A program made the translations under genes and the position numbers. The notes below the pieces were generated by a model. The model was not told the DNA's origin and ran no database searches. It saw nothing but the letters and a program-made list of their open reading frames with translations. This document shows positions 1 to 45,898 of a DNA stretch of 45,898 nt, in pieces. The stretch is from a virus. Position 1 is the first letter of the stretch. Every line of letters starts with the position of its first letter. Location of the stretch: the UHGV virus genome UHGV-1375876; one strand, given 5' to 3'.

Positions 1-70
1 GGTGCCTTCTGAGCCTCACGGCCTTGTCGTACTTGAGCTTGCAGTGCGGGCAGAAAATGGTGCCGTTCAT
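1..70 (-). CDS. Zn-ribbon protein, N-terminal part (MNGTIFCPHCKLKYDKAVRLRRH...); continues in frame into 45762..45898 if the window ends are joined
   Basis: ATG at complement 68-70 overlaps the stop of gene 67..333 (ATGA). The frame is open to position 1 with one nucleotide left over, which completes a codon with 45898-45897. It contains a CPHC motif. Confidence 0.5.
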   Translation of the reverse strand, partial: MNGTIFCPHCKLKYDKAVRLRRH

Positions 71-333
71 GCCGCGTTCCTCCTCTTTTCCAGCTTATCC
101 TGATACAGAGCATACCTGTCGTGAAGTTCTGCGCTTACCCATCCCTCGCAGTCGGTGATCTTCTTCGGGTCGATGGCAACCTCAGCATCGGCAAGCATGA
201 TGCCGAACCGTTCCTTGATGTCCTTCACCATGTCCGAAGAGATATTGCACAGCTGGTCGCTCTCGAAGTAGCGGGCGCAGGTGGCGCACACGCGGGGCTC
301 ATCTTCCGGTTCATATTCGTAAGGGTTACGCAT
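67..333 (-). CDS. hypothetical small protein with a CxxC motif
   Basis: 88-aa ORF with a GAGAGGA Shine-Dalgarno 7 nt upstream of the ATG. It is part of the leftward small-gene operon. Confidence 0.5.
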   Translation of the reverse strand: MRNPYEYEPEDEPRVCATCARYFESDQLCNISSDMVKDIKERFGIMLADAEVAIDPKKITDCEGWVSAELHDRYALYQDKLEKRRNAA

Positions 334-367
334 GGCTGTATCCTCTCGGTTGAAGTTCGTTCCGGCG

Positions 368-419
368 TCCCAATCCCGATGAAAAAGCCCCGATTTCTCG
401 GGGCTTCTACGGGACTAGG
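368..419 (-). repeat. intergenic stem-loop repeat, copy A (CCCAATCCCG..CCCCGA-loop-TCGGGG..GGGACTAGG); reads as a terminator-like hairpin plus T-run on the minus strand
   Basis: Shares conserved end blocks and a GC hairpin with copies at 885..932 and 1354..1403. On the minus strand the hairpin GCCCCGAgaaaTCGGGGC is followed by TTTTTCAT. Confidence 0.55.
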
Positions 420-424
420 ATGAT

Positions 425-559
425 TTAATCGTCGCCCGAGCCGTAGCCGGAGCCGTCGCCGTAGCCGGAGCCGTAGCCGGAGCCGGAGCCGTCGCCGTAG
501 CCGGAGCCGTAGCCGGAGCCGGAGCCGTCGCCGTAGCCGGAGCCGTTTACTCCTGCCAT
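425..559 (-). CDS. Gly/Tyr-rich tandem-repeat peptide (MAGVNGSGYGDGSGSGYGSGYGDGSGSGYGSGYGDGSGYGSGDD)
   Basis: 44-aa ORF not in the supplied track because it is under 60 aa. Its ATG overlaps the stop of the upstream gene, with a GAGGTGG Shine-Dalgarno. It is encoded by a roughly 36-bp tandem DNA repeat, gccgtagccggagccg..., at 430..545. Confidence 0.45.
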   Translation of the reverse strand: MAGVNGSGYGDGSGSGYGSGYGDGSGSGYGSGYGDGSGYGSGDD

Positions 560-852
560 ACTTCCACCTCATCGAGAGAGAGCTTTGCCTTTTCAGTGAG
601 CGGAAGCACTTCGATCACTTGGGTCAGGTGAACGGCATCGACCGGAGCGGGAAACTTGCAGTCATCCGGGTTACTCGTGCCGTCCTTGGAAAGCTGAGAA
701 AGGCTTGCCGCTCCAGCCCAGTACCAGACGCGGCGGGCATTCGTGACGACGGCTTCCTGACCGTCCATGTTTTCGAGTTTTCCATAGAAAACCCCGGCGC
801 TGTAGGTTCTGACGATGACGTTCTGTCCGATGAATGGGGAGAGCGTAGGCAT
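547..852 (-). CDS. hypothetical protein
   Basis: 101-aa ORF with an AAAGAGGA Shine-Dalgarno before the ATG and protein-like composition. Confidence 0.5.
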   Translation of the reverse strand: MPTLSPFIGQNVIVRTYSAGVFYGKLENMDGQEAVVTNARRVWYWAGAASLSQLSKDGTSNPDDCKFPAPVDAVHLTQVIEVLPLTEKAKLSLDEVEVWQE

Positions 853-884
853 AGTGTCCTCTTTGGTTGGTGTTGATGAATGTT

Positions 885-932
885 CCCAATCCCGTTTCCT
901 GCCCCGGATTCCGGGGCAAGTGCGGGGCTAGG
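885..932 (-). repeat. intergenic stem-loop repeat, copy B (hairpin GCCCCGGAATCCGGGGC)
   Basis: Conserved CCCAATCCCG and GGGGCTAGG blocks flank a GC hairpin. Confidence 0.55.
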
Positions 933-1321: not shown

Positions 1322-1353
1322 GGCTGTTCTCCTTTGGTCTTTCGGGCTTGAAT

Positions 1354-2039: not shown

Positions 2040-2402
2040 TCATTTTTGTGTTGCCAAAAGAGCTTTGATTTTCTCTTGTTCCTCTTTTTGTGCTCGATCT
2101 GCCTCAGCCAAGGCTTGTTTGATTACATCTCCCCAAGGCAAGCCCAAGGCGGCGCAAAGGTTCATCACGTCTGTCATCCTCAATTGTTGTGGCTTTCTGT
2201 TTTCTCCAGATCCTTGCCCCTTCCTGATTGATTGAACCTTTCTCCGAGAATCAGCAACGTGAGGGAATGCAAGCGAGCCAAGGGCTTGTTCGGTCATGCC
2301 TATGACTGTGCGGCGTTCCTCAAGTGCTCTTCGGATGGATTCTTCAAACGCGACCATCCCGGTTTCGTTTAGCACCTGCATTTCTCCTTTTCCCTCAGTC
2401 AT
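2040..2402 (-). CDS. XRE-family HTH transcriptional regulator; cI-like phage repressor without a peptidase domain
   Basis: About 120 aa with an XRE-like helix-turn-helix in the N-terminal half (IRRALEERRTVIGMTEQALGSLAF...). Start at the ATG with an AAAGGAGAG Shine-Dalgarno. It is flanked by two copies of the operator palindrome. No S24 or LexA-like domain. Confidence 0.7.
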   Translation of the reverse strand: MTEGKGEMQVLNETGMVAFEESIRRALEERRTVIGMTEQALGSLAFPHVADSRRKVQSIRKGQGSGENRKPQQLRMTDVMNLCAALGLPWGDVIKQALAEADRAQKEEQEKIKALLATQK

Positions 2403-2451
2403 AGCAAAAACTCTCCTTTTACTCTTGGCGTATTTTTTTGCATTGACAAAG

Positions 2452-2466
2452 AGGTAAACTTTACCT
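2452..2466. promoter_or_regulatory. operator palindrome AGGTAAACTTTACCT in the repressor promoter region
   Basis: Second copy of the 15-bp palindrome, lying between TTGACA-like elements upstream of the repressor start. Confidence 0.55.
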
Positions 2467-3778
2467 AAAAAGAAGTCAACAGGGCACGCCCAACCGCCCC
2501 GCGAAGAAGCGAACAGGAGGGAGTAGGCCACCGCTCAAGGGGCATTGTCTGATGGACGGCTAGAAACGGTGGCGTCAGGCTCTACACGGGAACCACGGCC
2601 CCATGCCCGAAGCGCAGCAGCGAGACGAGAGAAGACGCGGGGAAGACGGCGCATCAGCCGGAAAGCTCTCGACCTGTAGCATGATGCAGTGACTACAGGG
2701 GCCATGAAGCGACGGCGGCTCCATACCGGAACCACTTAGCGGGAAGGTCTTAGCGCCCCTCAATGGGAAAGGGGCAGCTTTGGCCTTTCGCTCAGGCTCA
2801 CCACCCGGAACTCATGGGAAGCCCGAATGCCTTTCTGCCTTTCCTCTTCGGCATATGCCTTTCCCCTCTTCGCCTACCGAGAGCCAGGGTCAGGGCGGGA
2901 ACCGCCCTCTTGCCGGAATGGGGGGACGGGAAAGATGAAAAAGGGGCACGGAATCTCAAAAGCCGTTTTCAATTCTTTTTGAGATGCTGCGAAGTGTGAA
3001 AAAACGCTAAAACAGGACATTTTACTCTGTGCGTAGCCTGTCCACGAAGTTTATGGGCAATTTATAAGCGATTTATGGGATTTTATGAGTTTTAAAAATA
3101 TCAACTTTTTCAATATGATACACTGTTTTATCTTCTAAGTAAGCTCATTTTAATAATCGTTCTTTGACAATCAGCCCCCATAACCCGCCCAGTCCGGTGG
3201 TAGTGTCATCGGTGGTATGGCGGATAGGGAAAACTTCATGGGCGGGTGGTTCGATGCCGGATACAGTACACCGGGAATCACCACGCCCTAGACCAGCGAC
3301 TAGTGAAAACAACCTTATCCACGCTCTAGCATGGTTCGGGAGTACGATTTCTCGCGCTCCCTTTCATGCTGGCGGTCGAACTGTCGAAAGGTCAACTGAC
3401 CGCCCGGATATAAAAATTCGTATTTCATCACGTTTCACGGCCCGATCTTTGTGTCGTAACCGTGGGCCCTGTTGGTCGGCTCGGCCCCCGTCGCTTCGGT
3501 GCGCTTTGCGCTTCGGCCTTCTTTTCAGCCGTTTTTCCGTCCCGCCGTCCCTGCGCGGCCTGTCTTCACCTCGCCAGCCTGTTGCCCTTCTTTTTCGCGT
3601 CCTACTGGGGAGCCTTAGCACTGGGGGTCGGCATCGTTCGGTTGCTCCATACTGAGCGGCTGGCTTCCTCCGCCCGGGGTTTCGGCTACTTTCCGGCTAG
3701 GTGCCTGGCGTGTTCGCCTTCCCCGTTCGTCGTGAAGTTACAATACCAACTGGTAAAAAATAGGTCAAGAATAAAATT

Positions 3779-3920
3779 CCCAATAGGTAAAGTATGAGGT
3801 TTGACATCCTCCCCCTGAAGGGAGAGGTTTTACGGCGCGTTGGATAAATATTCAACCCTTGAATATACAATAGGAATTACAGCGGCACCATTTAATGTTG
3901 ACTATAATTTTACCTATTGG
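3779..3920. promoter_or_regulatory. rightward immunity-region control sites: inverted half-site-related repeats CCAATAGGTAAA (3781..3792) and TTTACCTATTGG (3909..3920), and a perfect TATAAT at 3903..3908
   Basis: The two 12-mers are exact reverse complements about 115 bp apart and share the GGTAAA core with the operator. A further related sequence, CTGGTAAAAAATAGGTC, is at 3750..3766. Confidence 0.45.
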
Positions 3921-3932
3921 TATTTAGTTCCC

Positions 3933-4178
3933 ATGAAGAACGAACTTTCCCACCCTAGTTTTTACGGCTTCACAATTACTGACGCGGCCGCACGCTCAGG
4001 GCTTCCTTATGTGACGGTGTGGAGGCATTTCAAAAAACATCGCGCTATAAGCCCTGAAACTGCCATTCGTTATAATCGTTTTTTGGGTATCCCCCTTTCA
4101 TCTCTCAGGCCTGATCTGTGGCCTCCAACCCTCCCCAGCACTCCCACCGAACCCGAAGAGGTAGACCGTGCTGGATGA
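3933..4178 (+). CDS. putative Cro/CII-like HTH regulator
   Basis: 81 aa from an internal ATG. An HTH-like segment (TITDAAARSGLPYVTVWRHFKK) lies near the N-terminus. It is the first rightward gene after the non-coding region. No clear Shine-Dalgarno. Confidence 0.4.
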   Translation: MKNELSHPSFYGFTITDAAARSGLPYVTVWRHFKKHRAISPETAIRYNRFLGIPLSSLRPDLWPPTLPSTPTEPEEVDRAG

Positions 4179-4515
4179 ATGGGGGCTTGCTCGCTTCATC
4201 GGGTATCTCGGCGGGGCTGTTGCCTTTTGTTTTTTCACGCACCGCCGAGAGTCCCTCAATGCACCGCTGGGCCACGGCTTCCGGCGTCGGGTAGTCCTCG
4301 GCACGGTGCAAGGGATGCTTTCCGGCGTGAAGATCATACATCCGGCAAATGCTCGTGAGATCCGTTCGGCGCTCGGTGACGTGATCACGGCCTGCCGCCG
4401 GGTGCAAACACAGCTTCAACCTGTAGCCGCTTCCCGCGATCATACAGAGTGCCTTGCCTGTGTGAGGCCTGAAGCAAGAAAACCGTGGTGGAAAAAGATC
4501 AGGGGGGAAAGATAA
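4168..4515 (+). CDS. hypothetical protein
   Basis: GTG start with a GAAGAGGT Shine-Dalgarno. Codon third positions are GC-rich. The minus-strand alternative (4105..4695) looks less protein-like. Confidence 0.3.
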   Translation: MLDEWGLARFIGYLGGAVAFCFFTHRRESLNAPLGHGFRRRVVLGTVQGMLSGVKIIHPANAREIRSALGDVITACRRVQTQLQPVAASRDHTECLACVRPEARKPWWKKIRGER

Positions 4516-4727
4516 TGCCGATCTTGATCTGCCAACAGTGTGGTCGGATGTTCGAGGTGAAACGGTATTTTGCCGAAACCGCAAAATATTGCTCGAAAGA
4601 GTGCAAAGACAAGGCTGCACAGACGCGCGCCCCGCAAAAATGCAAGTCTGCGGGAAACTCTTTCCCGCAAAAGGACATGCCGTTTTTTGTGACAAGGCTT
4701 GTAGTTATGCTTTTAGAGCCGGGGTAA
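4515..4727 (+). CDS. Zn-ribbon protein (CxxCG..F..FCSxxC), frame A
   Basis: ATG with a GGGGGAAAG Shine-Dalgarno. The Cys motif is ICQQCGRMFEVKRYFAETAKYCSKEC. It overlaps frame B from 4640. Confidence 0.45.
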   Translation: MPILICQQCGRMFEVKRYFAETAKYCSKECKDKAAQTRAPQKCKSAGNSFPQKDMPFFVTRLVVMLLEPG

Positions 4728-4912
4728 GCCGTGAAGAATGGATTGCTGAACACCCGCAGAGTGACCAGTCAACGCTTTTCAAGCGTAAGTGCCATGACTG
4801 CGGGAAGCCCACGAACAATTACAGATGCCCGGCGTGTTGGGAAAAGCTCCGCAGCAGTTCAGAGATAGACGGCATCCCGGAATACGAAGTCATGGGGCAG
4901 GCATGGGTATAG
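4640..4912 (+). CDS. Zn-ribbon protein, frame B (two CxxC-type motifs); possibly the -1 frameshift continuation of 4515..4727
   Basis: Motifs CGKLFPAKGHAVFCDKAC and CHDCGKPTNNYRCPAC. There is no Shine-Dalgarno before its ATG. A canonical slippery heptamer, G GGA AAC at 4652..4658, lies in the frame-A register at the start of the overlap. Confidence 0.4.
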   Translation: MQVCGKLFPAKGHAVFCDKACSYAFRAGVSREEWIAEHPQSDQSTLFKRKCHDCGKPTNNYRCPACWEKLRSSSEIDGIPEYEVMGQAWV

Positions 4913-5103
4913 ATCCGTGCCGCTTTGGTCGGCTTTACCGCGACGGGCGCCGCGTCCTGTGCTTTGCGGACTGGTCGAAAGAGTACGGGGTGCCGACGTG
5001 GACGTCACGGAACGGGTTCGTCAAAGACGTGAACTTCTGCCGCCTGTACTGCGAGAAGCGCCCGAATATTGTTGAAGTGGAACTTGAAGGTTGCAAGGCA
5101 TAG
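4903..5103 (+). CDS. hypothetical protein
   Basis: 67-aa ORF from an internal ATG, with protein-like composition. Confidence 0.3.
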   Translation: MGIDPCRFGRLYRDGRRVLCFADWSKEYGVPTWTSRNGFVKDVNFCRLYCEKRPNIVEVELEGCKA

Positions 5104-5174
5104 GCGAAAGAAAAGCCCGATGCGGGAACACCGGGCCAAACCAAAAATAACCAAAACGTGAAAGCAGGATACAT

Positions 5175-6119
5175 ATGGAACACGGATATGTCAAGCTTTG
5201 GCGGAAATGTTTAGACAGCGGATTGCTTCAAAATGGCCCCGCATGGCAGCTTTTTGGGTACTTGCTGCTCAAGACTACGCACAGGCCGCATCGCCAGATT
5301 ATCGGTGGCATGGTTTTTGAGCTTGAGCCGGGGGAAGTCATCTTTGGGCGAGCTAAAGCAGCCTCTGATCTGAGGCTGAGCGAAAAGCAGGTAAGAACAG
5401 CTTTTGAGCTGCTTAAAAAACTCGAAATTGTGGCCAGCCGATCGACCAACCGCTGTACGGTGGTTTCTTTTGTGAATTGGCATAGATACCAAGATGAAAG
5501 GCCAGCCGAGGGCCAACCGGAGGGCCAGCCGCAGGGCCAACAAACGGCCAGCAACGGGCCAGCAGAGGGCCAGCAGAGGGCCACAAACAAGAATGTAAGA
5601 ACAAAGAAAGAAGAATATATAAATACACTCCCCCTTACCCCCTCAAGCGAGGGGGAAGCTGATTTGTGCGATGAGCATACTCCTCCCACGGAGTCCCAGA
5701 GTTCGTCACGGGGGGCACGCAATGACGGCACAAAACCACGAGCTGCGGGAACGAATCCCAGAACCAACGGCACAAGCCCTCGGAGCACTGGGGACAACCC
5801 CCGCACAAGGGAGCCTGCCGGTTCCCGTGCCGGGGGGAATTCCGCCGCAGACCTGAAAGCCTTTGCCGACGAGTACACGCAATGCCCGGAACTCAGGCAG
5901 GCATTGGAGGATTTTCGCGTCATGCGGGAACGTTTGCGAAAGCCCCTGACGGCAAGGGCATTCCAGCTCACCTGCACGGAGCTGGATAAACTGGCCGGAA
6001 ATGACGACGTGCTGAAAACAAAGATTCTTGACCAGAGCATCCAGCGGGGGTGGCAGGGGATTTTCCCGCTCCGTGAAGACTCGAAACCCAAAGTAGACCA
6101 GTGGGCAGGCGCAATATGA
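5175..6119 (+). CDS. phage replication initiator (lambda O-like or replisome-organizer winged-helix N-terminus, DnaD-like C-terminus) with a low-complexity central linker
   Basis: The N-terminus (YVKLWRKCLDSGLL..LSEKQVRTAFELLKKLEIV) is typical of phage O/replisome-organizer proteins. The central PEGQ-rich linker is encoded by iteron-like DNA repeats. Its stop overlaps the primase-helicase start (ATGA). Confidence 0.65.
   Translation: MEHGYVKLWRKCLDSGLLQNGPAWQLFGYLLLKTTHRPHRQIIGGMVFELEPGEVIFGRAKAASDLRLSEKQVRTAFELLKKLEIVASRSTNRCTVVSFVNWHRYQDERPAEGQPEGQPQGQQTASNGPAEGQQRATNKNVRTKKEEYINTLPLTPSSEGEADLCDEHTPPTESQSSSRGARNDGTKPRAAGTNPRTNGTSPRSTGDNPRTREPAGSRAGGNSAADLKAFADEYTQCPELRQALEDFRVMRERLRKPLTARAFQLTCTELDKLAGNDDVLKTKILDQSIQRGWQGIFPLREDSKPKVDQWAGAI
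5498..5655. other. putative phage origin of replication inside the initiator gene: about 8 iterons GGCCA(G/A)C at roughly 11-bp spacing (5500..5585), AT-rich tract (5586..5628), palindrome CCCCTCaagcGAGGGG
   Basis: Direct repeats with helical periodicity followed by an AT-rich segment, all inside the O-like gene. This mirrors the lambda ori arrangement. Confidence 0.5.
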
Positions 6120-7921
6120 GCAGCATGAAGCAATACGACATCCGGCAAATTTCTGAAATGCTGGCGGCGAGGGCTGAGTCCGTTTGCGAGTGGCTGTTGC
6201 CCGGTGGAAAGCGTGAAGGCCGGGAATGGCGGGCCGGAAGTATAACCGGGGAGACGGGGAAGTCGCTTGGAGTCAATCTTTCCGGGAAACCGGGAGTGTG
6301 GCGGGATTTTGCGGACGATGCCAAAGGCGGCGATCTTATCGACCTCATTCAAGCCGTGCATGGGATCACGAAGGCGGATGCCGTCAGGGAGGCGAAAGAA
6401 TTCCTTGGCATAGCCTCAGAACGCCCACAATTCGCTCCTGAGCGCAAAAAGTACGTTAAGCCGACTCGTCCATCGGGATTGACGAAACCGAGCCCTGAAA
6501 TGCTTCTCTGGTTCGAAAAACGGGGCATCAGCAGAGAGGTCGTTGAAGCGTTCAAAATTGGGCAGCTAAACCATGCCCAGAAAGGGCCTGTCATCGTGTT
6601 TCCGTATCTGCGCGGCGGGGAACTTGTTTTTATCAAGTATCGCCCGCTGCATGACAAAAAAGACATGTGGACGAGCAAGGATTCTGAACCCTGTCTGTTC
6701 GGCTGGGATTTGATGCCGGAGAATGCGAGGACGCTGGTTATTTGCGAAGGGGAACCGGATGCAATGGCTTTTCGGCAAGCTGGAATCTGCGCCGTATCCG
6801 TGCCGCGCGGGGGTGGTGAGGGGGATAAGCAGGACGGGTGGATCGATGCGGAGTGGGAGCGCCTCCAGCTTTTTGACACGATTTACCTTGCGCTTGATCA
6901 GGACGAACAGGGCTGTAAAGCAATGGAGCATATTTCCCGCCGTTTAGGGCAGCATCGTTGTTTCATCGTCAGTTTTGGCGGGCACAAGGATGCAAATGAA
7001 GCTTTGGTTTCCGGGGTTGACCTGAAATCCGTTTTTGAATCTGCAAAGACTATCGATCCTGTGGAACTGCATTCCGCTTCTGACTATCTCGATGAAGTAT
7101 TTGCATATTTTAGTGACGCTCAAGAAGCCGGGGGGATCAAGCTGCCGTGGGCGAAGACGCAGACCACTGTCGGTTTGCGCAACGGAGAAACGACAATCTG
7201 GGCTGGCATAAATGGACATGGCAAAAGCCAGATTATCGGGCATGTTGTCGTTGATTCACTGGCAAAGGGAGAACGCTGGTGCGTCGCCTCCATGGAGTTC
7301 AAGCCATACAAATTCCTTGCCAGAATGGCACGACAGGCCTGTGCCACGAACAGACCTGAGCCGGGCGACAAACAGGCTCTTGACGCTTTCTGGAATGGTT
7401 CCCTCTGGGTGTTTGATGTGCAGGGTACAGCAAAGGCTGACAGGATTCTTGAAGTGTTTGAGTATGCGTATCGCCGTTATGGTGTCAGGCATTTTCTTAT
7501 CGACAGTCTGGCCAAATGCGGATTCGGCGAAGATGCATACAACGAACAGAAAGCCTTTGTTGATCGACTTTCAGACTTTGCCAGAAATAATGACATTCAG
7601 GTGCATCTTGTCTGTCACTCCCGCAAACGAAATGACGAATCGGACCTTCCTGACAAGTTTGACATCAAGGGAACAGGCGCAATCACGGATATGGTTGATA
7701 ATGTTTTCATTGTGTGGAGGAACAAGCCAAAAGAGCAGAAAGTACAGGAAGCGACAAGCGATTGGGGAAAGCAGCAAGCTCAGAATGAAGGGCCTGACGC
7801 CATCCTGTATTGCTGCAAGCAGCGCAACGGAGAATGGGAGGGGAAAATCAAGCTCTGGTTTGACCCAGCTTCTTTGCAATACCTGGAATCCGCAACTTCT
7901 TCTCCTGTGAGGTACTGCTGA
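6116..7921 (+). CDS. bifunctional DNA primase/helicase (TOPRIM primase plus DnaB/T7 gp4-like helicase)
   Basis: TOPRIM motif VICEGEPDAMAF and Walker A GINGHGKS. Helicase motifs DSLAKCGFGEDAY and HLVCHSRK are present. About 600 aa. Confidence 0.85.
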   Translation: MSSMKQYDIRQISEMLAARAESVCEWLLPGGKREGREWRAGSITGETGKSLGVNLSGKPGVWRDFADDAKGGDLIDLIQAVHGITKADAVREAKEFLGIASERPQFAPERKKYVKPTRPSGLTKPSPEMLLWFEKRGISREVVEAFKIGQLNHAQKGPVIVFPYLRGGELVFIKYRPLHDKKDMWTSKDSEPCLFGWDLMPENARTLVICEGEPDAMAFRQAGICAVSVPRGGGEGDKQDGWIDAEWERLQLFDTIYLALDQDEQGCKAMEHISRRLGQHRCFIVSFGGHKDANEALVSGVDLKSVFESAKTIDPVELHSASDYLDEVFAYFSDAQEAGGIKLPWAKTQTTVGLRNGETTIWAGINGHGKSQIIGHVVVDSLAKGERWCVASMEFKPYKFLARMARQACATNRPEPGDKQALDAFWNGSLWVFDVQGTAKADRILEVFEYAYRRYGVRHFLIDSLAKCGFGEDAYNEQKAFVDRLSDFARNNDIQVHLVCHSRKRNDESDLPDKFDIKGTGAITDMVDNVFIVWRNKPKEQKVQEATSDWGKQQAQNEGPDAILYCCKQRNGEWEGKIKLWFDPASLQYLESATSSPVRYC

Positions 7922-8109
7922 TGCTTATTCGTCTTCGGTGGATACTGAAAGATTGTATTGTAACAGCGGCATGTCATGGGGTCATTGGTCCGAAGACAGC
8001 TCACTGTTTTATATGGTCTGGGTTTGATTCATGTCTGATTGCCCACGATACTGTGAAATTTTTGGTCCCGGTGCGTGTGTTGGGGTATTTGATGAAAAGG
8101 AGTGTGTGA
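7921..8109 (+). CDS. hypothetical small protein
   Basis: 62-aa ORF with overlapping stop/start on both sides (TGATG). Confidence 0.3.
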   Translation: MLIRLRWILKDCIVTAACHGVIGPKTAHCFIWSGFDSCLIAHDTVKFLVPVRVLGYLMKRSV

Positions 8110-8501
8110 TGAATGCACCACAAACTGCAATGGAAACCTTGCGTCTTGAACTTCCCATTCCGCCGCTCGTCAACCACTACTGGCGGCACATTACAATCAA
8201 AGGGACCCCTAGAACGCTCATATCAGCCCGTGGGCGCGATTTTAGGGAAAATGTGGTGCGGATTGTGGGCCGAGAGAAAAAGGCCCTTAAAATCGATTCC
8301 CGCGTCAAGATCAATGTGCGGGTTTACCCGCCGGATAGACGCAAGCGTGACATAGACGGGTATCTGAAAGCCCTTCTTGATTCCCTTACTCACGCCGGGG
8401 TGTGGCTGGACGACGAGCAAGTGGACTCGATTTACATCACACGCGGCGAGGTAGTGAAAGGCGGAAAGGCCGTTGTCGAAATCTTGCCGATGGGAGAGTG
8501 A
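8109..8501 (+). CDS. rusA: RusA-family Holliday junction resolvase
   Basis: Clear RusA signature: PPLVNHYW, RDIDGYLKALLDSLTHAGVWLDDEQV. About 130 aa. Confidence 0.8.
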   Translation: MNAPQTAMETLRLELPIPPLVNHYWRHITIKGTPRTLISARGRDFRENVVRIVGREKKALKIDSRVKINVRVYPPDRRKRDIDGYLKALLDSLTHAGVWLDDEQVDSIYITRGEVVKGGKAVVEILPMGE

Positions 8502-8503
8502 GC

Positions 8504-8692
8504 ATGGCTGATAAAGAACGCAGGCTGTTGTGCGGCTGGAAGGCCATTACGGCCTATACTGGAGTTAGCCGTCTGCTCATGATCCGCTACGCCTATCCCG
8601 TTCATGACTGCGATAGAGCCACGCATCGCGGGTACGGCGTCTGCGTCTATACCGACGAGCTTGACGCCCACAAGGAGGCTGTCAGTGCATAA
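8504..8692 (+). CDS. small DNA-binding protein, weak excisionase/AlpA-family HTH-like
   Basis: 62 aa. Its pattern (RLLCGW.AI..YTGVSR..M.RY.YP) resembles HTH_17 excisionase-like domains. The call is tentative. Confidence 0.3.
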   Translation: MADKERRLLCGWKAITAYTGVSRLLMIRYAYPVHDCDRATHRGYGVCVYTDELDAHKEAVSA

Positions 8693-8945
8693 CATCGACA
8701 TCACAATACTTGGTGAACAGGCTCTTGCGGCACTCATGCAGCGGCTGTCGGAAGCACGCGGGAAGCACCCTGTTTTCGCGGAGGGCAAATACCACGCGCT
8801 CGGCGTTATCGGGGAGGAGTACCGTGAGCTTGTACACGCCGTTGAGCACGAAACCCCGGAGCGTATCTGCGACGAAGCCCTCGATGTAGCTGTGACCGCA
8901 CTGCGGCTATGGCTTGGGGAACACAAGGTTGGTGCTCATGAGTGA
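8685..8945 (+). CDS. MazG-like nucleotide pyrophosphohydrolase domain protein
   Basis: GTG start with an AAGGAGG Shine-Dalgarno. The all-alpha EExxE..A...E..D pattern (GEEYRELVHAVEHETPERICDEALDVAV) is typical of MazG. Confidence 0.45.
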   Translation: MHNIDITILGEQALAALMQRLSEARGKHPVFAEGKYHALGVIGEEYRELVHAVEHETPERICDEALDVAVTALRLWLGEHKVGAHE

Positions 8946-9306
8946 CGTGTGGGTGAGCCAGTTCGAACTGTCAGAGGCCATCGGTGACGTGGGGGCGGTC
9001 ATCCTCTGCGCACAGTGCGGTGGCCGTTCATACTTTATCCCCCGGAAGCCCACAGGTTTTCTTCTGGAGTTGCTTGGTCGGCAGCGTATGGCGGCCCTCT
9101 GTACAGAATTTGGGGGGATGCAGATCGTCGTGCCCAACCTGCGCCGTGGTGAACCGTTCAAAGGACGTATCCTGTCCCGTCTTGAAGCAGGGGAGAAGCC
9201 GGACGCCATCGCCGAAGCCCTTGGCGTAACCACCCGGTACGTCCGTCGGCTCAAAAAGCAGCTTTGCGGGAACTCGGAACCACAGCAGCAATATCGGTTG
9301 CTGTAA
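8938..9306 (+). CDS. Mor/C-family transcriptional activator (Mu middle/late activator-like)
   Basis: Contains the Mor-family core LLELLGRQRMAALCTEFGGMQIVVP and a C-terminal HTH (PDAIAEALGVTTRYVRRL). About 122 aa. Confidence 0.65.
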   Translation: MSDVWVSQFELSEAIGDVGAVILCAQCGGRSYFIPRKPTGFLLELLGRQRMAALCTEFGGMQIVVPNLRRGEPFKGRILSRLEAGEKPDAIAEALGVTTRYVRRLKKQLCGNSEPQQQYRLL

Positions 9307-9309
9307 GTC

Positions 9310-9327
9310 CGAACCTTGTTCACGGTG
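9310..9327 (+). promoter_or_regulatory. conserved 18-mer CGAACCTTGTTCACGGTG, copy 1 (candidate late promoter or activator site) upstream of the lysis cassette
   Basis: The identical 18-mer recurs at 15026..15043, 24330..24347 and 25815..25832. Each copy lies just after a stop codon and 32-50 nt before the first ATG of a rightward operon. Confidence 0.55.
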
Positions 9328-9373
9328 CCGCCTCCTCCCCCTGCCGTGGCAGAAGTGGACGCAGGAGGATTTT

Positions 9374-9898
9374 ATGCACATCATCAGATACCGCAAGGTT
9401 CCCGGAAAGATCGTCGCAAGTGCGGCGCTCGTCGCGCTTCTCGGCGTCGGGGCGGCCACCCTGTCCGTGGATATGATCGCGGATTTTGAAGGCTATGTGC
9501 CCGAAGCCTATCAGGACCCGGTCGGTATCTGGACCAAATGTTTCGGCGACACCGAGGACGTGGTGCCGGGTGCCCGGTACACGTTTGATCAGTGCGTGGA
9601 CTCCCTGAATGCCGCCGTCTATGCCCACGCCGGGCCTGTCCTGAGCTGCGTGCCGGGGCTGGCCGAGCAGCCGTACAAGGTCAGGGCGGCTTTCGTCTCG
9701 ATGGCCTACAACATCGGGCCGCATGGCTTTTGCACGTCATCCGTGGCCCGGTACGCCAATGCTGGAGAGTGGGAACGCGCCTGCACGCGTATGGCCGAGA
9801 TATACAAGACGGCCAAGGGGAAGGAGCTTCCCGGACTTGTGCGGCGTCGGCAGGCGGAATCCGCGCTTTGCCTCCAAGGGCTGCGAGAGGGCCGATGA
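9374..9898 (+). CDS. endolysin, GH24 phage lysozyme with an N-terminal SAR signal-anchor
   Basis: Catalytic region DFEGYVPEAYQDPVGIWTKCFGDT, like P21 R21. The N-terminal hydrophobic Ala/Gly-rich segment is KIVASAALVALLGVGAATLSV. Confidence 0.8.
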   Translation: MHIIRYRKVPGKIVASAALVALLGVGAATLSVDMIADFEGYVPEAYQDPVGIWTKCFGDTEDVVPGARYTFDQCVDSLNAAVYAHAGPVLSCVPGLAEQPYKVRAAFVSMAYNIGPHGFCTSSVARYANAGEWERACTRMAEIYKTAKGKELPGLVRRRQAESALCLQGLREGR

Positions 9899-10206
9899 TG
9901 TTCTCTTTTTTCTCTAAGCTCCTCCCTTTCCTTAAGCCCCTGACCGAGCGTTTGTTTACTGATAGCGCGCGGCGTGCCGAGCTTGAGGCTGAAAAAGAGC
10001 TGGTCGAGGCCCGGGCTTTTGCCAAGGGCAGGATCAGCCCGAAGTATCTGCTCAAATACGTGCTTGTCGCAGCCTTCGCCCTCTTTGCCGCCATAACCTT
10101 GCTCCATTTTTTATTTCCGCAGCACTTCGCCGTGTCACCGCTTGCGGAGTTGAAGGACCTCATTGACGTGGCTGCGGAGATTTTTGGTATGGGGGCAGGG
10201 CTATGA
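9895..10206 (+). CDS. lysis-cassette membrane protein (holin or spanin candidate)
   Basis: ATGA overlap with the endolysin. It has one strong transmembrane segment (YVLVAAFALFAAITLLHFLF). Confidence 0.4.
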   Translation: MMFSFFSKLLPFLKPLTERLFTDSARRAELEAEKELVEARAFAKGRISPKYLLKYVLVAAFALFAAITLLHFLFPQHFAVSPLAELKDLIDVAAEIFGMGAGL

Positions 10207-10487
10207 GCGGCGAGGAGAACATCCAGCTTGTGCGCGAGATCGGTGCGGTCAAGGCGGAACTGGCCGGGCTGACCGCCGAGGTAGCGGGTATCAACCAGCG
10301 GCTCGACGACATCGTGATCACGCAACTGAAGGATCACGGCAAACGGCTGGCCGCGCAGGACGCCCGCATCGCCGCCCTTGAAGCCGCCGAGAACAGGCGG
10401 GCGGGTGGTTTGGCCGTCCTTGCGGGTGTGGCCGCAGCCGCGGGCAGCGCTGGGGCTTTGCTCATGAAGCTGCTGGGCCCCCTGTGA
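10203..10487 (+). CDS. coiled-coil protein with a C-terminal TM (lysis accessory or spanin candidate)
   Basis: ATGA overlap with the upstream gene. It has a coiled-coil region followed by a C-terminal hydrophobic tail (AVLAGVAAAAGSAGALLMKLL). Confidence 0.35.
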   Translation: MSGEENIQLVREIGAVKAELAGLTAEVAGINQRLDDIVITQLKDHGKRLAAQDARIAALEAAENRRAGGLAVLAGVAAAAGSAGALLMKLLGPL

Positions 10488-10512
10488 TCTGAGTTTTTCG
10501 GAGCTATAAAAA

Positions 10513-15021: not shown

Positions 15022-15025
15022 ACTC

Positions 15026-15043
15026 CGAACCTTGTTCACGGTG
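15026..15043 (+). promoter_or_regulatory. conserved 18-mer CGAACCTTGTTCACGGTG, copy 2, upstream of the portal/head operon
   Basis: Identical to copies 1, 3 and 4. It lies 33 nt before the portal ATG. Confidence 0.55.
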
Positions 15044-15076
15044 TAAATTCTTCTTCGCTCATAGCATGATGCCCTC

Positions 15077-17402: not shown

Positions 17403-19118
<1,716 letters not shown>

Positions 19119-19129
19119 GAGGCACACCA

Positions 19130-19710: not shown

Positions 19711-19720
19711 GAGGTACTAC

Positions 19721-32621: not shown

Positions 32622-32623
32622 CA

Positions 32624-38182: not shown

Positions 38183-39293
38183 CATCATGCCCAACGTCTT
38201 GGGATATGCAGCGGATACCGTGCAGATCCCTAAAACGACCCCCACGGGTCAAGGTATTCCCTCTTTCCGAGATCTCTTTCCGTTCATCACGCAGGTCGAC
38301 CCGGACGCGGGCGGCGTCATGGTTGAACGTTCATGGATGAACGCGCTTTTCAACCTGCTTGGTCAACACGCCTTTTTCCAACAATCCGGATGCGTCTACC
38401 CGTGGCAAGATACGCTGAACTATATCACGGGCTCTCATGTCAAAGGTAGTGATGATGTCGAGTACATCGCGTTGCAACCTTCCGGGCCAGATGTGTCCGG
38501 CGTGGGAGCAAAAGACCCTGCACAGCAAGCAAACCGCGCGTACTGGGTTTCGCTTGCATCTTTTGTCTCCGGCGACTTTGTTCCAGATTCGCGGCGGGTC
38601 ATCGCCGGAACGGGGCTCACTGGCGGCGGGCCGCTCTCCGCTGACGTGACTCTCGCGGCGAAGCTGACCGACAGCGTGAGCTCGAGAGATTCGACCACGG
38701 CGGCGTCCGCGAAGGCTGTGAAGACGGCCTATGATCTGGCGAACAGCAAGCAGGCAAACCTTGGTTTTACGCCCGTGCAGCAGGGCGGCGGAACCGGGCA
38801 AGGAAGCGATAAGATCTACATAGGGTACAGTAAGAGTGGACTGAAGGCGCAGGCGGATGTCCTCGATCTCGGATATATCGTCACGACATCCGCCGGATGT
38901 ACAAAAGCCCCCAGTGCCGCCAATGCGGATTATGCGACTTCGGCAGGTACATTATATATAGGGTGGCCCTCCACTTGGCACTGGATTGGTCAGGCGGGTC
39001 AACCGGAATGGTTGTGGGGAGGTAATGAGGCTACCCGTGGTAGTATGTACGTCTACAACCCCGTCAATTTCAGAGTGAACTATGCGAACAGCGCGGGGAC
39101 GGCGACAGGCCTCACTTATGCCTTTACAAAAAATAGCTCCCTTGTACTGCCGCCGGGGGGAACGTGGTTTGTTCTGAACTGGTGGGATGGCGATGGTGTC
39201 ACCGCGAATGGTAACTGGTCAGGTGGTCAAATAGTCGCCGGAGGATCTAGTGTAGGCGTAAGCAATGGGGCGTTTGCCCTGAGGGTTGCATGA
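38160..39293 (+). CDS. tail fiber protein
   Basis: P2 gpH-like motif (..SSRDSTTAASAKAVKTAYDLANSKQ..) and a Gly-rich beta-type C-terminus. GGAGG Shine-Dalgarno. Confidence 0.65.
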   Translation: MPIPSTPSIMPNVLGYAADTVQIPKTTPTGQGIPSFRDLFPFITQVDPDAGGVMVERSWMNALFNLLGQHAFFQQSGCVYPWQDTLNYITGSHVKGSDDVEYIALQPSGPDVSGVGAKDPAQQANRAYWVSLASFVSGDFVPDSRRVIAGTGLTGGGPLSADVTLAAKLTDSVSSRDSTTAASAKAVKTAYDLANSKQANLGFTPVQQGGGTGQGSDKIYIGYSKSGLKAQADVLDLGYIVTTSAGCTKAPSAANADYATSAGTLYIGWPSTWHWIGQAGQPEWLWGGNEATRGSMYVYNPVNFRVNYANSAGTATGLTYAFTKNSSLVLPPGGTWFVLNWWDGDGVTANGNWSGGQIVAGGSSVGVSNGAFALRVA

Positions 39294-39697
39294 TCGAAAA
39301 AACATACGGACAAATTATCCACCGGGCATCTGATGATTCTTATGTCATCACGAAGAACGGAATGCCCTACCACGTCTATCCCTACGCCGCCGAGTTCGCG
39401 GAAGAATGGGACGCCGTGTTCGCCTACGCCGAAGCACACCCGGAGATGGTGACGGAAGAGCAGCCCTACGTCCCGCCCGTGCCGACGACCGAAGAACTCG
39501 CGGCTAGCGTACGCGCCGAACGCAACAAACGGCTTGCTCTCACCGATCATCTTGTCATGCCAGACTATCCGCTTGATACGGATAAACTTGAAGAGATCAA
39601 GGCATACCGCCAAGCTCTCCGCGACATTCCGCAGCAACCGGGCTTTCCGTGGGGTGGACCTGACGATCCTGCGTGTCCGTGGCCTGTCGAACCGTGA
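39290..39697 (+). CDS. tail fiber assembly protein (Tfa)
   Basis: ATGA coupling to the fiber gene. Conserved C-terminal pattern ..ERNKRLALTDHLVMPDYPL..EEIKAYRQALRDIPQQPGFPW. Confidence 0.6.
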   Translation: MIEKTYGQIIHRASDDSYVITKNGMPYHVYPYAAEFAEEWDAVFAYAEAHPEMVTEEQPYVPPVPTTEELAASVRAERNKRLALTDHLVMPDYPLDTDKLEEIKAYRQALRDIPQQPGFPWGGPDDPACPWPVEP

Positions 39698-39867
39698 TTT
39701 GCAAAAATCGTAGGCATGGCTAGACTCTTTAGAAACAAGGAGGAAGGTCATGCCGCTACCCATGCCCGAAGAAGAGGAGCACTTTCGTTGTCCGCACGGT
39801 GAACGTGTTCAAGCACTGATGCTGTGTTCTCTGGACTGTGCTGAATCTGGCGCGCATCCAGACAGAA

Positions 39868-39892
39868 AAGGAAAAGCCCCTTTCGGGGCTAC
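39868..39892. terminator. bidirectional terminator hairpin between the convergent tail operon and the leftward early operon
   Basis: AAAAGCCCCtttcGGGGCT. On the minus strand it is followed by TTTTCCTTTTCT. Confidence 0.55.
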
Positions 39893-40237
39893 TTCGGTTC
39901 GCGGGGTTCGTCGGGAATGGGCACCACCGCCACAAGTTCGTCATCCCATGCTCGCGCGTGCTCCCAACTACACAGATCACTCTCGTTCGTGCATGGAAGC
40001 TTGCGGCACAAATACCGCCCATCCCCGTCTATGCCTACGGCGATGCGCGGCACCCAAAATTTCATGCCGGAATCGCGCACAGCCACACTCTCTCCACAAA
40101 CCGGCATATACTTTGACTCGGACCACGAAGCGGGGGCGTCAGCCGTGCCCGCCACATGACTGTAGAAACCCGGCACCCATGCAGTGTCGTCGCTATCCCG
40201 CACCAGTACCCTGTAGAACGGCTTGAAATCAGACATC
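39889..40237 (-). CDS. hypothetical protein
   Basis: 116 aa from an internal ATG with a GGAGAAGAGGAGAAGA Shine-Dalgarno. Protein-like composition, unlike the overlapping plus-strand ORF. Confidence 0.45.
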
Positions 40238-43336: not shown

Positions 43337-43566
43337 GGCGTTACTCCGTTGAACTCTTTCAATGTTCCGTCGCTCCATATAACTCTGTGAGTGTTGTTCT
43401 CAGAGTCTACAATGACGAACACGATATCCTTCTTCTGCTTCTCTGAAAGTATCCCGCTCATCTCACCAGACCTATACGCAAGATGCATACAGAAAAAAAA
43501 CATGATGAGCGCGTAAACCATCCCCATAAATTTTGAGTTCATGAATCTTGTAAATCCGTTACCCAC
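43300..43566 (-). CDS. small membrane protein
   Basis: GTG start with a GGGAGG Shine-Dalgarno. Hydrophobic segment MGMVYALIMFFFCMHLAY. AT-rich. Confidence 0.4.
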   Translation of the reverse strand: MGNGFTRFMNSKFMGMVYALIMFFFCMHLAYRSGEMSGILSEKQKKDIVFVIVDSENNTHRVIWSDGTLKEFNGVTPCPTPTPSQTSD

Positions 43567-43849
43567 AGTTCACCGCCTCCCGCAGTTCCTTTCCCGGCCT
43601 GAACTTCACGGCCTTGTGCGCGGGGATGGGGATGCTTTCCCCGGTGCGCGGATTGCGGCCTTGACGTTCGGGCACGTCCACGACTTCGAACACGCCGAAG
43701 CCCTGAATTTTCAGGAAGCCGTGTTCAACGATAGCCCGTTGGAGCGTATCTAATACCTGATTGACGACACGTTCGGTCATCATGATCGAGTTCATGGTGC
43801 CCATGGTGTCTGAATTTCGAAGCATCCTGACAAATTCGGATCTGTTCAT
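43559..43849 (-). CDS. HU/IHF-family DNA-binding protein
   Basis: Classic HU/IHF arm: FGVFEVVDVPERQGRNPRTGESIPIPAHKAVKFRPGKELREAVN. Confidence 0.85.
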   Translation of the reverse strand: MNRSEFVRMLRNSDTMGTMNSIMMTERVVNQVLDTLQRAIVEHGFLKIQGFGVFEVVDVPERQGRNPRTGESIPIPAHKAVKFRPGKELREAVNCG

Positions 43850-43850
43850 G

Positions 43851-43880
43851 GCGTTACCTCAAAAGAAAGGCCCGGTGGTG
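43851..43880 (-). terminator. rho-independent terminator between recT and the HU/IHF gene
   Basis: On the minus strand the hairpin GGCCCGGctcaccaCCGGGCC is followed by TTTCTTTTG. Confidence 0.55.
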
Positions 43881-43896
43881 AGCCGGGCCGGGGTGG

Positions 43897-44826
43897 TTAT
43901 TCTGCCCACGCGGGGCATTGGGCGTGCTGGTCACATTCGGAACACTTCAAGTCGTTCACCTGCTTTTCAGTTTTCGGACAGGTGATCAGATTGACGGCGG
44001 GGGCGGGCTGAGCTTCCGGCTGCGCGGGTACTTCCGATTCAGAGCTATCGGAGTCCACAATGTCGGTATCAACCACGTCCCCAAACGAGCCGATGTCCTT
44101 GATGCTCTTCATGTCAGCATCCATGGCCTGCTGCATTTCAACGGACATGACGCCCCACTTGCTGATGAGCTGGCGGATCATGGTTTTGAAGGCCATAGCG
44201 TCGAAGTCCTTGCTCCAGAACGAGTTGTTCCATCCCTTGTTCAGGTCATTCTTGTAGGCCTTCGAGTAGCGCAGGGCGTGCGCCTGCATCTTTTCCTTGC
44301 TCCAGTACAGGCACTTCCGAAATCCGTTCAGGTACTCGAACATGGCGTAATAGCCGGTGGTTGGCGTCTCTTCCCGGAGGGCGTCATCCTGAATAAGGTC
44401 GATTTCCAGCTCTTCATTCAGCGGGTCAAAGAACTTAAGTTCTCCCTCCTTGACGGCAATGACGTTTAGTTTGCGGTAGTTTCCGGAACGGATGGCAAGC
44501 TGGACATAGCCCTTGTAGCCAAGTTGGAACGTCGCCATGTTTCTGTTGTTTTTGTTGTCTCGGTAGGAGACTACCCATGCCTGCCCAAGTTGGCGGTTGA
44601 GCGAAAGGTTCAGACTCTGGGCTTGCAATGCGGAGGCGATCAGACTCATTGGTTCACAGTCTCTGAGCGCAACATCCTGATTCATAAGGCTGATCAGGCT
44701 GGTTACGAAATCATCGGCCTTCTTGCCTACAAGAACGGTGGAAATCTTGGAGCGCACCAGCTCGGCGAAACTCTTTTTTTGTTCCTGAGCCGGGGGCATG
44801 GGGCGGGTGAGATCAAGCTGTGACAT
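43897..44826 (-). CDS. recT: RecT-family single-strand annealing recombinase
   Basis: RecT core (..LGQAWVVSYRDNKNNRNMATFQLGYKGYVQLAIRSGNY..) plus a C-terminal Cys-rich tail. Confidence 0.85.
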   Translation of the reverse strand: MSQLDLTRPMPPAQEQKKSFAELVRSKISTVLVGKKADDFVTSLISLMNQDVALRDCEPMSLIASALQAQSLNLSLNRQLGQAWVVSYRDNKNNRNMATFQLGYKGYVQLAIRSGNYRKLNVIAVKEGELKFFDPLNEELEIDLIQDDALREETPTTGYYAMFEYLNGFRKCLYWSKEKMQAHALRYSKAYKNDLNKGWNNSFWSKDFDAMAFKTMIRQLISKWGVMSVEMQQAMDADMKSIKDIGSFGDVVDTDIVDSDSSESEVPAQPEAQPAPAVNLITCPKTEKQVNDLKCSECDQHAQCPAWAE

Positions 44827-44836
44827 GGTATTGGCC

Positions 44837-45610
44837 TTATGCCGCCCACTTGGGCAGACTGATGGTTAAAATGTCTCTGGTGTAGCAGGGAAAGGTTCCC
44901 GAGTTCAGGCAACGCTTGAGGCTTTCGACAGCGGACAGACACTCGGATAGCCCCTTTTGCAGGGCATCCTCGTCGAGCTGGCACATGGTGACGAGGTGCG
45001 GGAATGTTTTTTCGACAAAGATGAAGATGAACGCCTCGCAGGGTTGGCCTATGGCTTTCATCCCATCGAGATACCAAGCGGCCTGCCGATGGTAGCCGTA
45101 TTTCGCGATGGTGCGCTGGATGGCCTCTGGGTTCGCGCTCTCCGTGGTTTTGAGGTCGGCACAGAAGCGTTGCCCGAAAACGGTAGAAACGATGTCCGGC
45201 TTGGCCTTGCATTCGATGCCGTCGCGCATCCAGTAAATGGGCTGTTCCGCAGTGTAGTGCCTAAAAAGGCACTTGGCCTGTGGGTGCTCCCGGACTGCCT
45301 CGGACATGAGCAGGGCCTTTTCGTAGTCCTCCTGCTTGACGATGGTCACAGTGTCCGGGATGCCTTTTTTCCACTCCCGTCCTGCCTTCGTGGAGAGATT
45401 GATGTCGGTGACGGCGAACTCGTTGGCGAACAGCTCAGGTTGAAGGCAGAGAAGATGGAACATACTGCCGAAGGAAAGGGCCTTGGATTCCTGCTCGTCG
45501 TCCACGCCCTCCAACCACGCTTTGTAAAGAGCAGGACATTCAAGCAACAGGTCGATGGCACTTTTGGAAAGAGCTTTGTTGGAGAAGTATGCTGCGTCAG
45601 CCTTATTCAT
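44837..45610 (-). CDS. PD-(D/E)xK-family exonuclease (YqaJ/lambda Exo-like partner of RecT)
   Basis: D..K / QxxxY motifs (FCADLKTTE..YGYHRQAAWYLDG). Positioned directly upstream of recT in the same operon. Confidence 0.65.
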   Translation of the reverse strand: MNKADAAYFSNKALSKSAIDLLLECPALYKAWLEGVDDEQESKALSFGSMFHLLCLQPELFANEFAVTDINLSTKAGREWKKGIPDTVTIVKQEDYEKALLMSEAVREHPQAKCLFRHYTAEQPIYWMRDGIECKAKPDIVSTVFGQRFCADLKTTESANPEAIQRTIAKYGYHRQAAWYLDGMKAIGQPCEAFIFIFVEKTFPHLVTMCQLDEDALQKGLSECLSAVESLKRCLNSGTFPCYTRDILTISLPKWAA

Positions 45611-45765
45611 CGCATGGCCTCCATCCCGTACAAGATCTGTGGAAGAATGCAGATCCCAAGCATGACCGACATAAAGATGATGACCGCAGCAACTCTAGCC
45701 CGGTCAACCTTTTTAGGCCGTTCCAAAGATACCTTGGCGTGCTTCATGTAGACGTTGGAAATCAT
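45607..45765 (-). CDS. small membrane protein (52 aa)
   Basis: Not in the track because it is under 60 aa. GGAGGG Shine-Dalgarno. Hydrophobic core AAVIIFMSVMLGICILPQIL. ATGA overlaps at both ends. Confidence 0.4.
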   Translation of the reverse strand: MISNVYMKHAKVSLERPKKVDRARVAAVIIFMSVMLGICILPQILYGMEAMR

Positions 45766-45898
45766 GCCGCCGCCCTCCGTGCCATGATTTTGAGGTAGTT
45801 AGCCTTTGCCAGAAACGATCGTGCGGCGTTCTCGCACGCCGTGACCAGCGTCTCGGCGGTGTAGTATTCCGCGCAGGACGAGCAGATCCAGAAGTCGC
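45762..45898 (-). CDS. Zn-ribbon protein, C-terminal part (...DFWICSSCAEYYTAETLVTACENAARSFLAKANYLKIMARRAAA); the 5' part is at 1..70
   Basis: The frame is open from the window edge to a TGA that overlaps the downstream ATG. It joins 1..70 exactly in phase, giving a 68-aa CPHC-x18-CSSC protein. Confidence 0.5.
   Translation of the reverse strand, partial: DFWICSSCAEYYTAETLVTACENAARSFLAKANYLKIMARRAAA

Follow-up and report, generated by a model that had tools for sequence, protein, structure and literature searches.

We analyzed a window of viral DNA, the whole 45,898-base-pair (bp) stretch of UHGV-1375876, and found that it carries neither an integrase cassette nor the operon of the maintenance repressor CI. 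Relatives (given below by L numbers) carry both modules at the same positions between collinear flanks. In the window, the breakpoints can be located, a gene relic is kept, and the junctions recur in independent assemblies. We consider it likely that the window is an ordinary case of a temperate lineage giving rise to a lysogeny-defective derivative, which is most likely obligately lytic. The initial annotation had described the genome as temperate-looking; this holds for its ancestry, as the relatives with both modules show, but the present state is better described as no longer temperate. Judged from its head and tail genes, which are of the E217/Pam3/XM1 type, the window is the genome of a putative myovirus from the human gut.

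The integrase slot and the repressor slot

The Pfam search of the approximately 70 genes called for this analysis revealed no integrase, resolvase or transposase family, and the PHROGs search of the early and unknown genes was likewise negative for all three. In the six frames of 2350-4450, Pfam found no recombinase and no protein family of any kind, and among all other stop-to-stop open reading frames (ORFs) of at least 130 codons the single match was an HNH endonuclease, with no recombinase or transposase. A tyrosine-integrase hidden Markov model (HMM) made from 20 integrases of related loci did not match any window ORF of at least 60 amino acids, and tblastn with the integrases of two relatives gave a best E-value of about 1. 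The earlier claim that the genome has no tyrosine or serine recombinase and no DDE transposase was thus upheld by Pfam, PHROGs, the lineage HMM and tblastn. No dif-like site matched the E. coli-type pattern at up to 3 mismatches, although the dif of the host may differ from this pattern.

To compare the corresponding regions, relatives were gathered via RecT and via the tail-fibre chaperone. In L036, L040, L043, L048, L053, L042, L057 and L069, which have the tail module in common with the window, the chaperone is followed at a distance of no more than about 0.5 kb by a tyrosine integrase of 335-447 amino acids. In L012, L027, L146 and L139, the leftward operon has the integrase at its distal end, and about 1 kb remains from there to the end of the contig. 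The corresponding features of the window are as follows.

39698-39888, no strand: integrase-cassette scar (junction), from the chaperone stop codon (39697) to the last gene of the leftward operon
39750-39877, plus strand: 5' part of a truncated small gene with a strong ribosome-binding site; 76 amino acids, intact in L047 (8460-8687)

Upon alignment, window 39311-39878 corresponded to L036 8007-8576 and window 39863-39903 to L036 10840-10880, and L040 and L043 aligned in the same manner. The 2.2-2.3 kb between these flanks in the three relatives comprise the integrase and a gene of 163-187 amino acids, and are absent from the window. The crossover lies at about 39863-39878, where the flanks overlap in a microhomology of 13-15 bp, CAGAAAAG(G/C)(A/G)AAAGC. 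The left break removes the C-terminus of the small gene at 39750-39877, and the right break is located just upstream of the ribosome-binding site of the 163-187-amino-acid gene. This junction is base-identical in at least 7 assemblies. The suggestion in the initial annotation that an integrase was lost agrees with this clean deletion relative to L036, L040 and L043, but the place of the loss is beside the tail-fibre chaperone and not at 2470-3930.

A second integrase-less configuration was found in L047, which lacks exactly the integrase ORF of L043 and keeps both neighbour genes and a 63-bp palindrome. At least 5 types of tyrosine integrase (335-447 amino acids), in either orientation, occupy this one slot between conserved flanks (L036, L040, L043, L048, L053, L042, L027 and L012), which suggests that integration cassettes are often exchanged in this gut phage lineage. 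No tRNA, which could have been a clue to attB, adjoins the integrases of the relatives. The attP site presumably lies within their integrase cassette, in the region absent from the window.

In the immunity region of the relatives, the order is cro, a rightward promoter with operators, the CI gene pointing away from cro, in some cases a gene for a membrane protein, then a terminator, the leftward promoter, a conserved leader and the early-left genes. The CI was found in two types. The first is a LexA-like S24 protein of 244-264 amino acids (L012, L115, L119, L123, L127, L143, L144, L149, L153 and others), and the second is a protein of 117-135 amino acids with a helix-turn-helix and a coiled coil (L027, L028, L124, L126, L138 and L146). 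At least 15 CI-carrying relatives have a spacing of 1.0-2.2 kb or more between cro and the leader, compared with about 170-200 nucleotides in the window, L039/L121, L080 and L159. The features of this region in the window are as follows.

3933-4178, plus strand: cro-like gene, 81 amino acids, HTH_3 match with E=7e-4, under the curated cut-off
3898-3926, plus strand: rightward early promoter TTGACT-17-TATTTA, with one remaining operator at 3910-3922
3801-3894, no strand: CI-slot scar, made of a 45-bp hairpin element (3801-3849) and a 52-bp relic (3844-3895)
3740-3790, minus strand: leftward early promoter (pL), TTGACC-17-TATTGT from 3768 to 3740, identical to pL of the CI-carrying L149

The window cro is 91-94% identical to cro of L143, L144, L149 and L159; the exact 81-amino-acid protein is not on record, presumably because another start was called. 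The best comparators are L149, L143 and L144, in which cro is 91-92% identical, the leftward promoter is the same and an S24 CI is present. Window 4300-3895 corresponds to L149 5804-6197 and window 3800-3353 to L149 7796-8217, so that 94 bp of the window stand in place of 1.6 kb of L149 (6197-7796), where the S24 CI and further genes lie. Operators of the CI/Cro type, TTACC(A/T)NTTGGTA, were found at the early promoters at 3744-3756, 3778-3790 and 3910-3922 and are common to L149. The 52-bp relic is 94% identical to L028 5823-5874, a part of the gene for a 179-amino-acid membrane protein that follows CI in the cI operon. The stretch 3700-3960, which contains the CI-less junction, is exact in 4 assemblies. 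A search of the entire window gave no homologue of CI. The immunity type of L159 is that of the window, and its junction is different, which suggests that it lost CI by an independent deletion.

With respect to both slots, the relatives fell into consistent groups. CI and integrase are both present in L012/L152, L027, L146 and L139; an occupied CI slot (about 1.0-2.2 kb) accompanies the integrase in L069/L131 and L057/L120; and the window, L039/L121 and L080 have neither CI nor an integrase at the canonical slot. No mixed case was found among the genomes that could be assessed for both, which are few, several of them being only partly in hand. Of the features of an integrating temperate phage, the window has cro and operator-bearing early promoters, and it has neither a recombinase nor a CI in the slot between cro and pL.

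Two observations concern the relatives of this region. The 45-bp hairpin element (ACATCCTCCCCCTGAAGGGAGAGGTTTTACGG...) occurs in both orientations at module boundaries, namely at 3801-3849 in the window, at 9592-9635 and 11719-11766 in L047, and in L072, L080 and L028; it may serve as a terminator or as a site of frequent recombination. The CI-carrying relative L153 is located on a 178-kb metagenomic contig (OJSC01000020.1), of which 12.6 kb were examined. L153 is probably a prophage integrated in this contig, and the sequences on either side of it could identify the host.

The g07 regulator and the two non-coding RNAs

The initial annotation had assigned a cI-like repressor with operators to the window. 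The gene in question, g07, is located downstream of the leader and outside the CI slot, together with the following elements.

2040-2402, minus strand: g07, regulator with an XRE/Cro-CI fold and a long C-terminal helix
2009 to 1988, minus strand: g07 terminator
1947 to 1919, minus strand: second leftward promoter TTGACG-17-TATTCT, with the perfect palindrome AGGTAAATTTTACCT at 1924-1938
2443-2471, plus strand: RNA-1 promoter TTGACA-17-TAAAAA, with the palindrome AGGTAAACTTTACCT at 2452-2466
2502 to 2479, minus strand: terminator-like hairpin, within the 2443-2502 region

The g07 sequence belongs to a conserved family of proteins of about 115 amino acids and has no Pfam, PHROG family or PDB sequence match. 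Its AlphaFold2 model (predicted local distance difference test score of 88) has an XRE/Cro-CI fold, and the top structural matches were C.BclI, ClgR, C.Esp1396I, HipB and the N-terminal domain of lambda cI. Perfect palindromes of the form AGGTAAAnTTTACCT are present in the window only at 1924-38 and 2452-66, where they flank g07. These palindromes differ in type from the early-promoter operators, and none is present at the rightward promoter. Since they flank g07 only, g07 would be unable to hold the rightward lytic promoter off. Furthermore, L012 and L143 carry g07 alongside an S24 CI, and L027 carries it alongside a CI of the coiled-coil type. The predicted fold and the palindromes are thus in agreement with the first description of g07, but its identity as CI is contradicted by its position outside the CI slot, by its coexistence with true CI proteins and by the different operators at the early promoters. 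We interpret g07, on the basis of the model and its context, as a predicted accessory regulator and not the CI. It had also been proposed that a repressor without a peptidase domain fits antirepressor-driven induction; this finds no support, as the slot emptied in the window is occupied by a LexA-like S24 CI in close relatives and the window has no CI homologue.

Between g07 and cro, we found no credible ORF (2403-3932). Instead, this region contains two convergent non-coding RNAs.

2476-3004, plus strand: RNA-1, about 530 nucleotides, starting TCAACAGGGCACGCC a few bases after the -10 box of the operator-bearing promoter
3310-3736, minus strand: RNA-2 leader (3736 to about 3310), about 330-430 nucleotides, starting TTCACGACGAACGGGGAAGGCGAA directly after the pL -10 box

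Neither RNA has an Rfam match. Exact 20-23-mers of the RNA-2 core recovered 18 viral and 37 metagenomic stretches, representing 39 distinct variants. The hairpins of RNA-2 are swapped as whole alleles with the pairing kept; the outer stem, for example, is GCCAGCC/GGCUGGC, GCCGGU/ACUGGU or GCCCCA/UGGGGU. In a consensus of 75 pairs, 93% of the cells can pair, compared with 28-37% in slid controls, and 10 pairs are changed on both sides; the core helices are invariant and hence uninformative on covariation. The fold of the minus strand showed a z-score of -3.1. Taken from these alignments, the RNA-2 structure appears to have covariation support. In the relatives, RNA-2 is followed by an intrinsic terminator and then by the early-left genes. 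All but its first ~90 nucleotides are replaced in L027 by tRNA-Ser(tga) and tRNA-Gln(ttg), at 3568-3655 and 3834-3908, and an ORF of 150 amino acids, which by its appearance we take to be TerB-like. From this replacement, the leader position can be regarded as a cargo slot.

RNA-1 is transcribed divergently from a g07-like gene (36-95% identity) in all cases, while its promoters vary among the relatives. RNAalifold yielded 77 pairs, 17 of which had double changes, and one helix closes the 5' and 3' ends. The region 2470-3930 is thus most plausibly read as two convergent conserved RNA genes and not as a decayed gene. An integrase decayed at this place, as considered in the initial annotation, is incompatible with the six frames devoid of any protein family, the absence of a tblastn signal and the presence of the two RNAs.

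One tentative extension of these findings, which we regard as possible although doubtful, is that RNA-1 and RNA-2 are new families that control early transcription. RNA-2 would then be a large antiterminator similar to the put RNA of phage HK022 or an RNA immunity element, and RNA-1 would be the regulated product of a switch formed by g07 and the RNA. If this is true, RNA-based control could explain why the loss of repressor and integrase has been tolerated repeatedly in this lineage. In either case, the central part of the immunity region contains two large conserved RNAs without a counterpart among the described RNA families, and their role is directly testable.

Lifestyle of the phage and alternative explanations

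The likely course of events begins with an ancestor in a temperate lineage with lambda-like organization. The integrase cassette would have been removed by recombination in the 13-15-bp microhomology, and the maintenance repressor operon between cro and pL would have been replaced by the 94-bp scar, which left one operator at the rightward promoter. In the resulting phage, the rightward lytic promoter could not be held off and site-specific integration of the window DNA would be impossible, so that the phage would propagate lytically. The remaining genes, namely cro, g07, Bro, Rha and RecT/exonuclease, would serve the lytic programme and mosaic recombination. Deletions in the lysogeny module are known to yield clear-plaque, non-lysogenising phages, as reported for deletion mutants of the Lactobacillus phage A2 (PMC6526443).

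Several points weigh against this interpretation. The lifestyle has been deduced from sequence only, and the association between CI and integrase rests on few genomes, some of which were seen partly. It is not proven in each relative whether the integrase was lost or gained, given at least 5 integrase types in either orientation, and the state of L047 could reflect the gain of a cassette and not a loss. In addition, with its XRE fold, its perfect palindromic operators and the terminators on either side, g07 is a genuine regulator that could still silence part of the genome, and two conserved RNAs sit in the immunity region. Finally, integration might be encoded by a helper or by the host.

We compared the deletion model with four other explanations. 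In the first, which is unlikely, the phage enters the chromosome without an integrase of its own, either by homologous recombination of RecT/exonuclease type into resident related prophages or by means of the integrase of a helper. RecT and the exonuclease are indeed present, and stretches of 99-100% identity are common to the window and L012, L149 and L152. Moreover, Rad52-like recombinases have reportedly been found to drive exchange with prophages (PMC3945230). However, the cassette with the integrase and presumably attP is absent, an inserted copy could not be silenced without CI unless the resident prophage supplied a matching one, and such a hybrid was seen in none of the contigs with exact-match proteins.

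An equally unlikely explanation is that no integrase was ever present at this slot, the relatives having gained their cassettes by insertion and the window representing the ancestral state. The occurrence of at least 5 integrase types (335-447 amino acids) in both orientations at one slot would be expected under this explanation, as would L047, which is devoid of exactly the integrase ORF with its flanks intact. In contrast, the window also has a truncated small gene and has lost the 163-187-amino-acid gene, which is kept even in the integrase-less L047 and L080, and its CI slot carries a gene relic. The truncated and missing neighbour genes, together with this relic, therefore indicate a deletion.

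It is slightly less probable still that the phage remains temperate as an episomal phage-plasmid, in which g07 would be the repressor and the primase-helicase module would provide the replicon. The XRE/CI-like predicted fold of g07 with its own operators and terminators, the circular assembly, a protein with a ParB_N domain at 10513-11142 and the fact that the genome has never been seen joined to host DNA are in line with such a lifestyle, which the initial annotation had proposed as an option. The window nevertheless contains no ParA, ParM, TubZ, plasmid Rep or protelomerase that we could find, and the ParB_N protein is an orphan truncated fusion beside the small terminase subunit. The best capsid matches in the plasmid collection had at most 39% identity, so no close relative is present there. 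As described above, the rightward lytic promoter is without g07 operators and g07 coexists with a true CI in relatives. The last explanation, that the modules are missing only because metagenomic data were misassembled, through a chimera or the collapse of variants, is highly improbable, since independent assemblies, made in different projects and with different assemblers, agree to the base at both junctions and across the end-to-start join.

If the genome is indeed a lysogeny-defective derivative, lifestyle calls based on Bro/Rha 'antirepressors', RecT or any helix-turn-helix 'repressor' would mislabel it as temperate, whereas synteny reveals the loss of both modules. The junctions are present in many independent human-gut assemblies and the relatives have different deletions of both modules; therefore, lytic offshoots of this temperate lineage appear to arise repeatedly and to spread, which is relevant to the question of how lytic populations emerge from prophage families of the gut.

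Gene layout and comparison with known systems

Position 45898 of the window runs exactly into position 1 in three other assemblies (L029, L030 and L031), which shows the window to be a complete phage genome, either circular or circularly permuted. This bears out the circularly joined ends noted at first, and the view of the assembly as a circle. The genome has about 56% G+C, no tRNA and no Rfam family were detected in it, and no near-identical DNA was matched among deposited phages. Contigs encoding a capsid, chaperone or loader protein identical to that of the window all originate from metagenomes of the human gut, are all at most 46.8 kb long and are in no case part of longer host contigs. 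A search of the genome collection anchored on RecT matched only unrelated Firmicutes metagenome-assembled genomes, at 41-48% identity. The layout, assigned by Pfam and PHROGs, is as follows.

1871-67, then across the window ends 45765-39889, minus strand: leftward early operon
44837-45610, minus strand: DUF3799/PDDEXK exonuclease, distal leftward operon
43897-44826, minus strand: RecT, distal leftward operon
43559-43849, minus strand: HU, distal leftward operon
3933-20734, plus strand: rightward operon with cro, DnaD-like loader, primase-helicase, RusA, late activator, lysis genes, ParB_N protein, terminase subunits, portal, Mu-F-like protein, scaffold, cement and major capsid
5175-6119, plus strand: DnaD-like loader (O-like initiator), in the replication module 5175-7921
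6125-7921, plus strand: Toprim and DnaB-like primase-helicase, in the replication module
20.8-25.8 kb, both strands: mixed cluster of small genes that holds two Bro-N and one Rha
22192-23112, minus strand: Bro-N, antirepressor-type
24387-24938, plus strand: Bro-N, antirepressor-type
24999-25811, plus strand: Rha, antirepressor-type
ending with the tail-fibre chaperone at 39290-39697: contractile-tail module of the E217/Pam3/XM1 type

RecT, the DUF3799 exonuclease and HU were found in the leftward operon, which had been annotated from the outset as a recombination operon, and all three of the predicted antirepressor-type genes (two Bro-N and one Rha) were recovered by Pfam/PHROGs.

Other features of the genome were also observed. 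The large terminase gene (11533-15021, plus strand) contains two inteins, one of the LAGLIDADG/Hom_end type in the P-loop region and another, of the Hint type, close to the C-terminus. The latter intein also contains, in a different reading frame, an ORF (14220-14861, plus strand) for an HNH_3 endonuclease with its own ribosome-binding site, while the terminase frame is still open; this ORF has the appearance of an overprinted homing endonuclease. The plus-strand gene at 10513-11142, which is situated after the lysis genes and before the small terminase subunit, encodes a chimeric protein with a ParB_N domain and an apparent C-terminal fragment of a nucleotide-sugar epimerase, and the same gene was called in L001 and L002. 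An early gene rich in zinc fingers is split into two frames (4485-4727 and 4538-4912, plus strand), with an intact homologue of 142 amino acids in L028; it is either a frameshifted pseudogene or a case of programmed frameshifting. The product of 21143-21646 (minus strand) has a precomputed match to the AcrIF11 ADP-ribosyltransferase (ART) family of anti-CRISPR proteins, and our own Pfam run gave a faint ART match only. A small ORF at 425-559 (minus strand) encodes Gly-Ser-Tyr-Gly-Asp repeats and shows an apparent length difference of about 36 nucleotides in two other assemblies, as judged from overlapping BLAST blocks.

Mu-like transposition was ruled out by the absence of an rve/DDE enzyme and by the exact end joining in three assemblies, and likeness to Mu is confined to the portal and Mu-F-like head genes. 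The partition system and plasmid-type initiator of the phage-plasmids P1, N15 and SSU5 were not found in the window, in which replication is assigned to a DnaD-like loader and a primase-helicase. The predicted fold of g07 best matches C.BclI and C.Esp1396I, which are controller (C) proteins of restriction-modification systems. These and other small XRE regulators likewise have palindromic operators between divergent transcription units, whereas the divergent partner of g07 is a non-coding RNA of about 530 nucleotides and not an enzyme gene, and g07 adds a long C-terminal helix.

The put RNA is about 70 nucleotides long and forms two stem-loops. In phage HK022, it acts as a cis-acting antiterminator (PMC9378689). 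RNA-2 is likewise located immediately downstream of the leftward early promoter and, in relatives, upstream of a terminator. In contrast to put, RNA-2 is far longer with many helices, has no sequence or Rfam relation to it and has no copy that we could see after the rightward promoter; antitermination by RNA-2 would be a hypothetical function, suggested by analogy.

The immunity region resembles that of lambdoid phages. Gene order and orientation are alike in the CI-carrying L012, L028 and L149, operators lie in the promoter spacers as in the window, and the leftward operon contains recombination genes with the integrase at its far end beside the tail genes. Unlike the lambdoid phages, the window has no N gene or recognisable nut site and has a conserved RNA of about 400 nucleotides after pL instead, an extra regulator module (g07 and RNA-1) is inserted, and the virion is predicted to be contractile-tailed and E217/Pam3/XM1-like, in contrast to lambda.

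The lambda cI/int mutants and the mycobacteriophage D29 are virulent, clear-plaque deletion derivatives of temperate phages. Compared with these and with phage A2, the window, the phenotype of which is predicted from its DNA, differs in the absence of both the repressor operon and the integrase cassette, and this double loss recurs in several related gut phages. As in these virulent derivatives, the lytic gene set of the window is complete and the lysogeny genes are deleted, relatives with intact modules exist, and scars or relics are present at the breakpoints.

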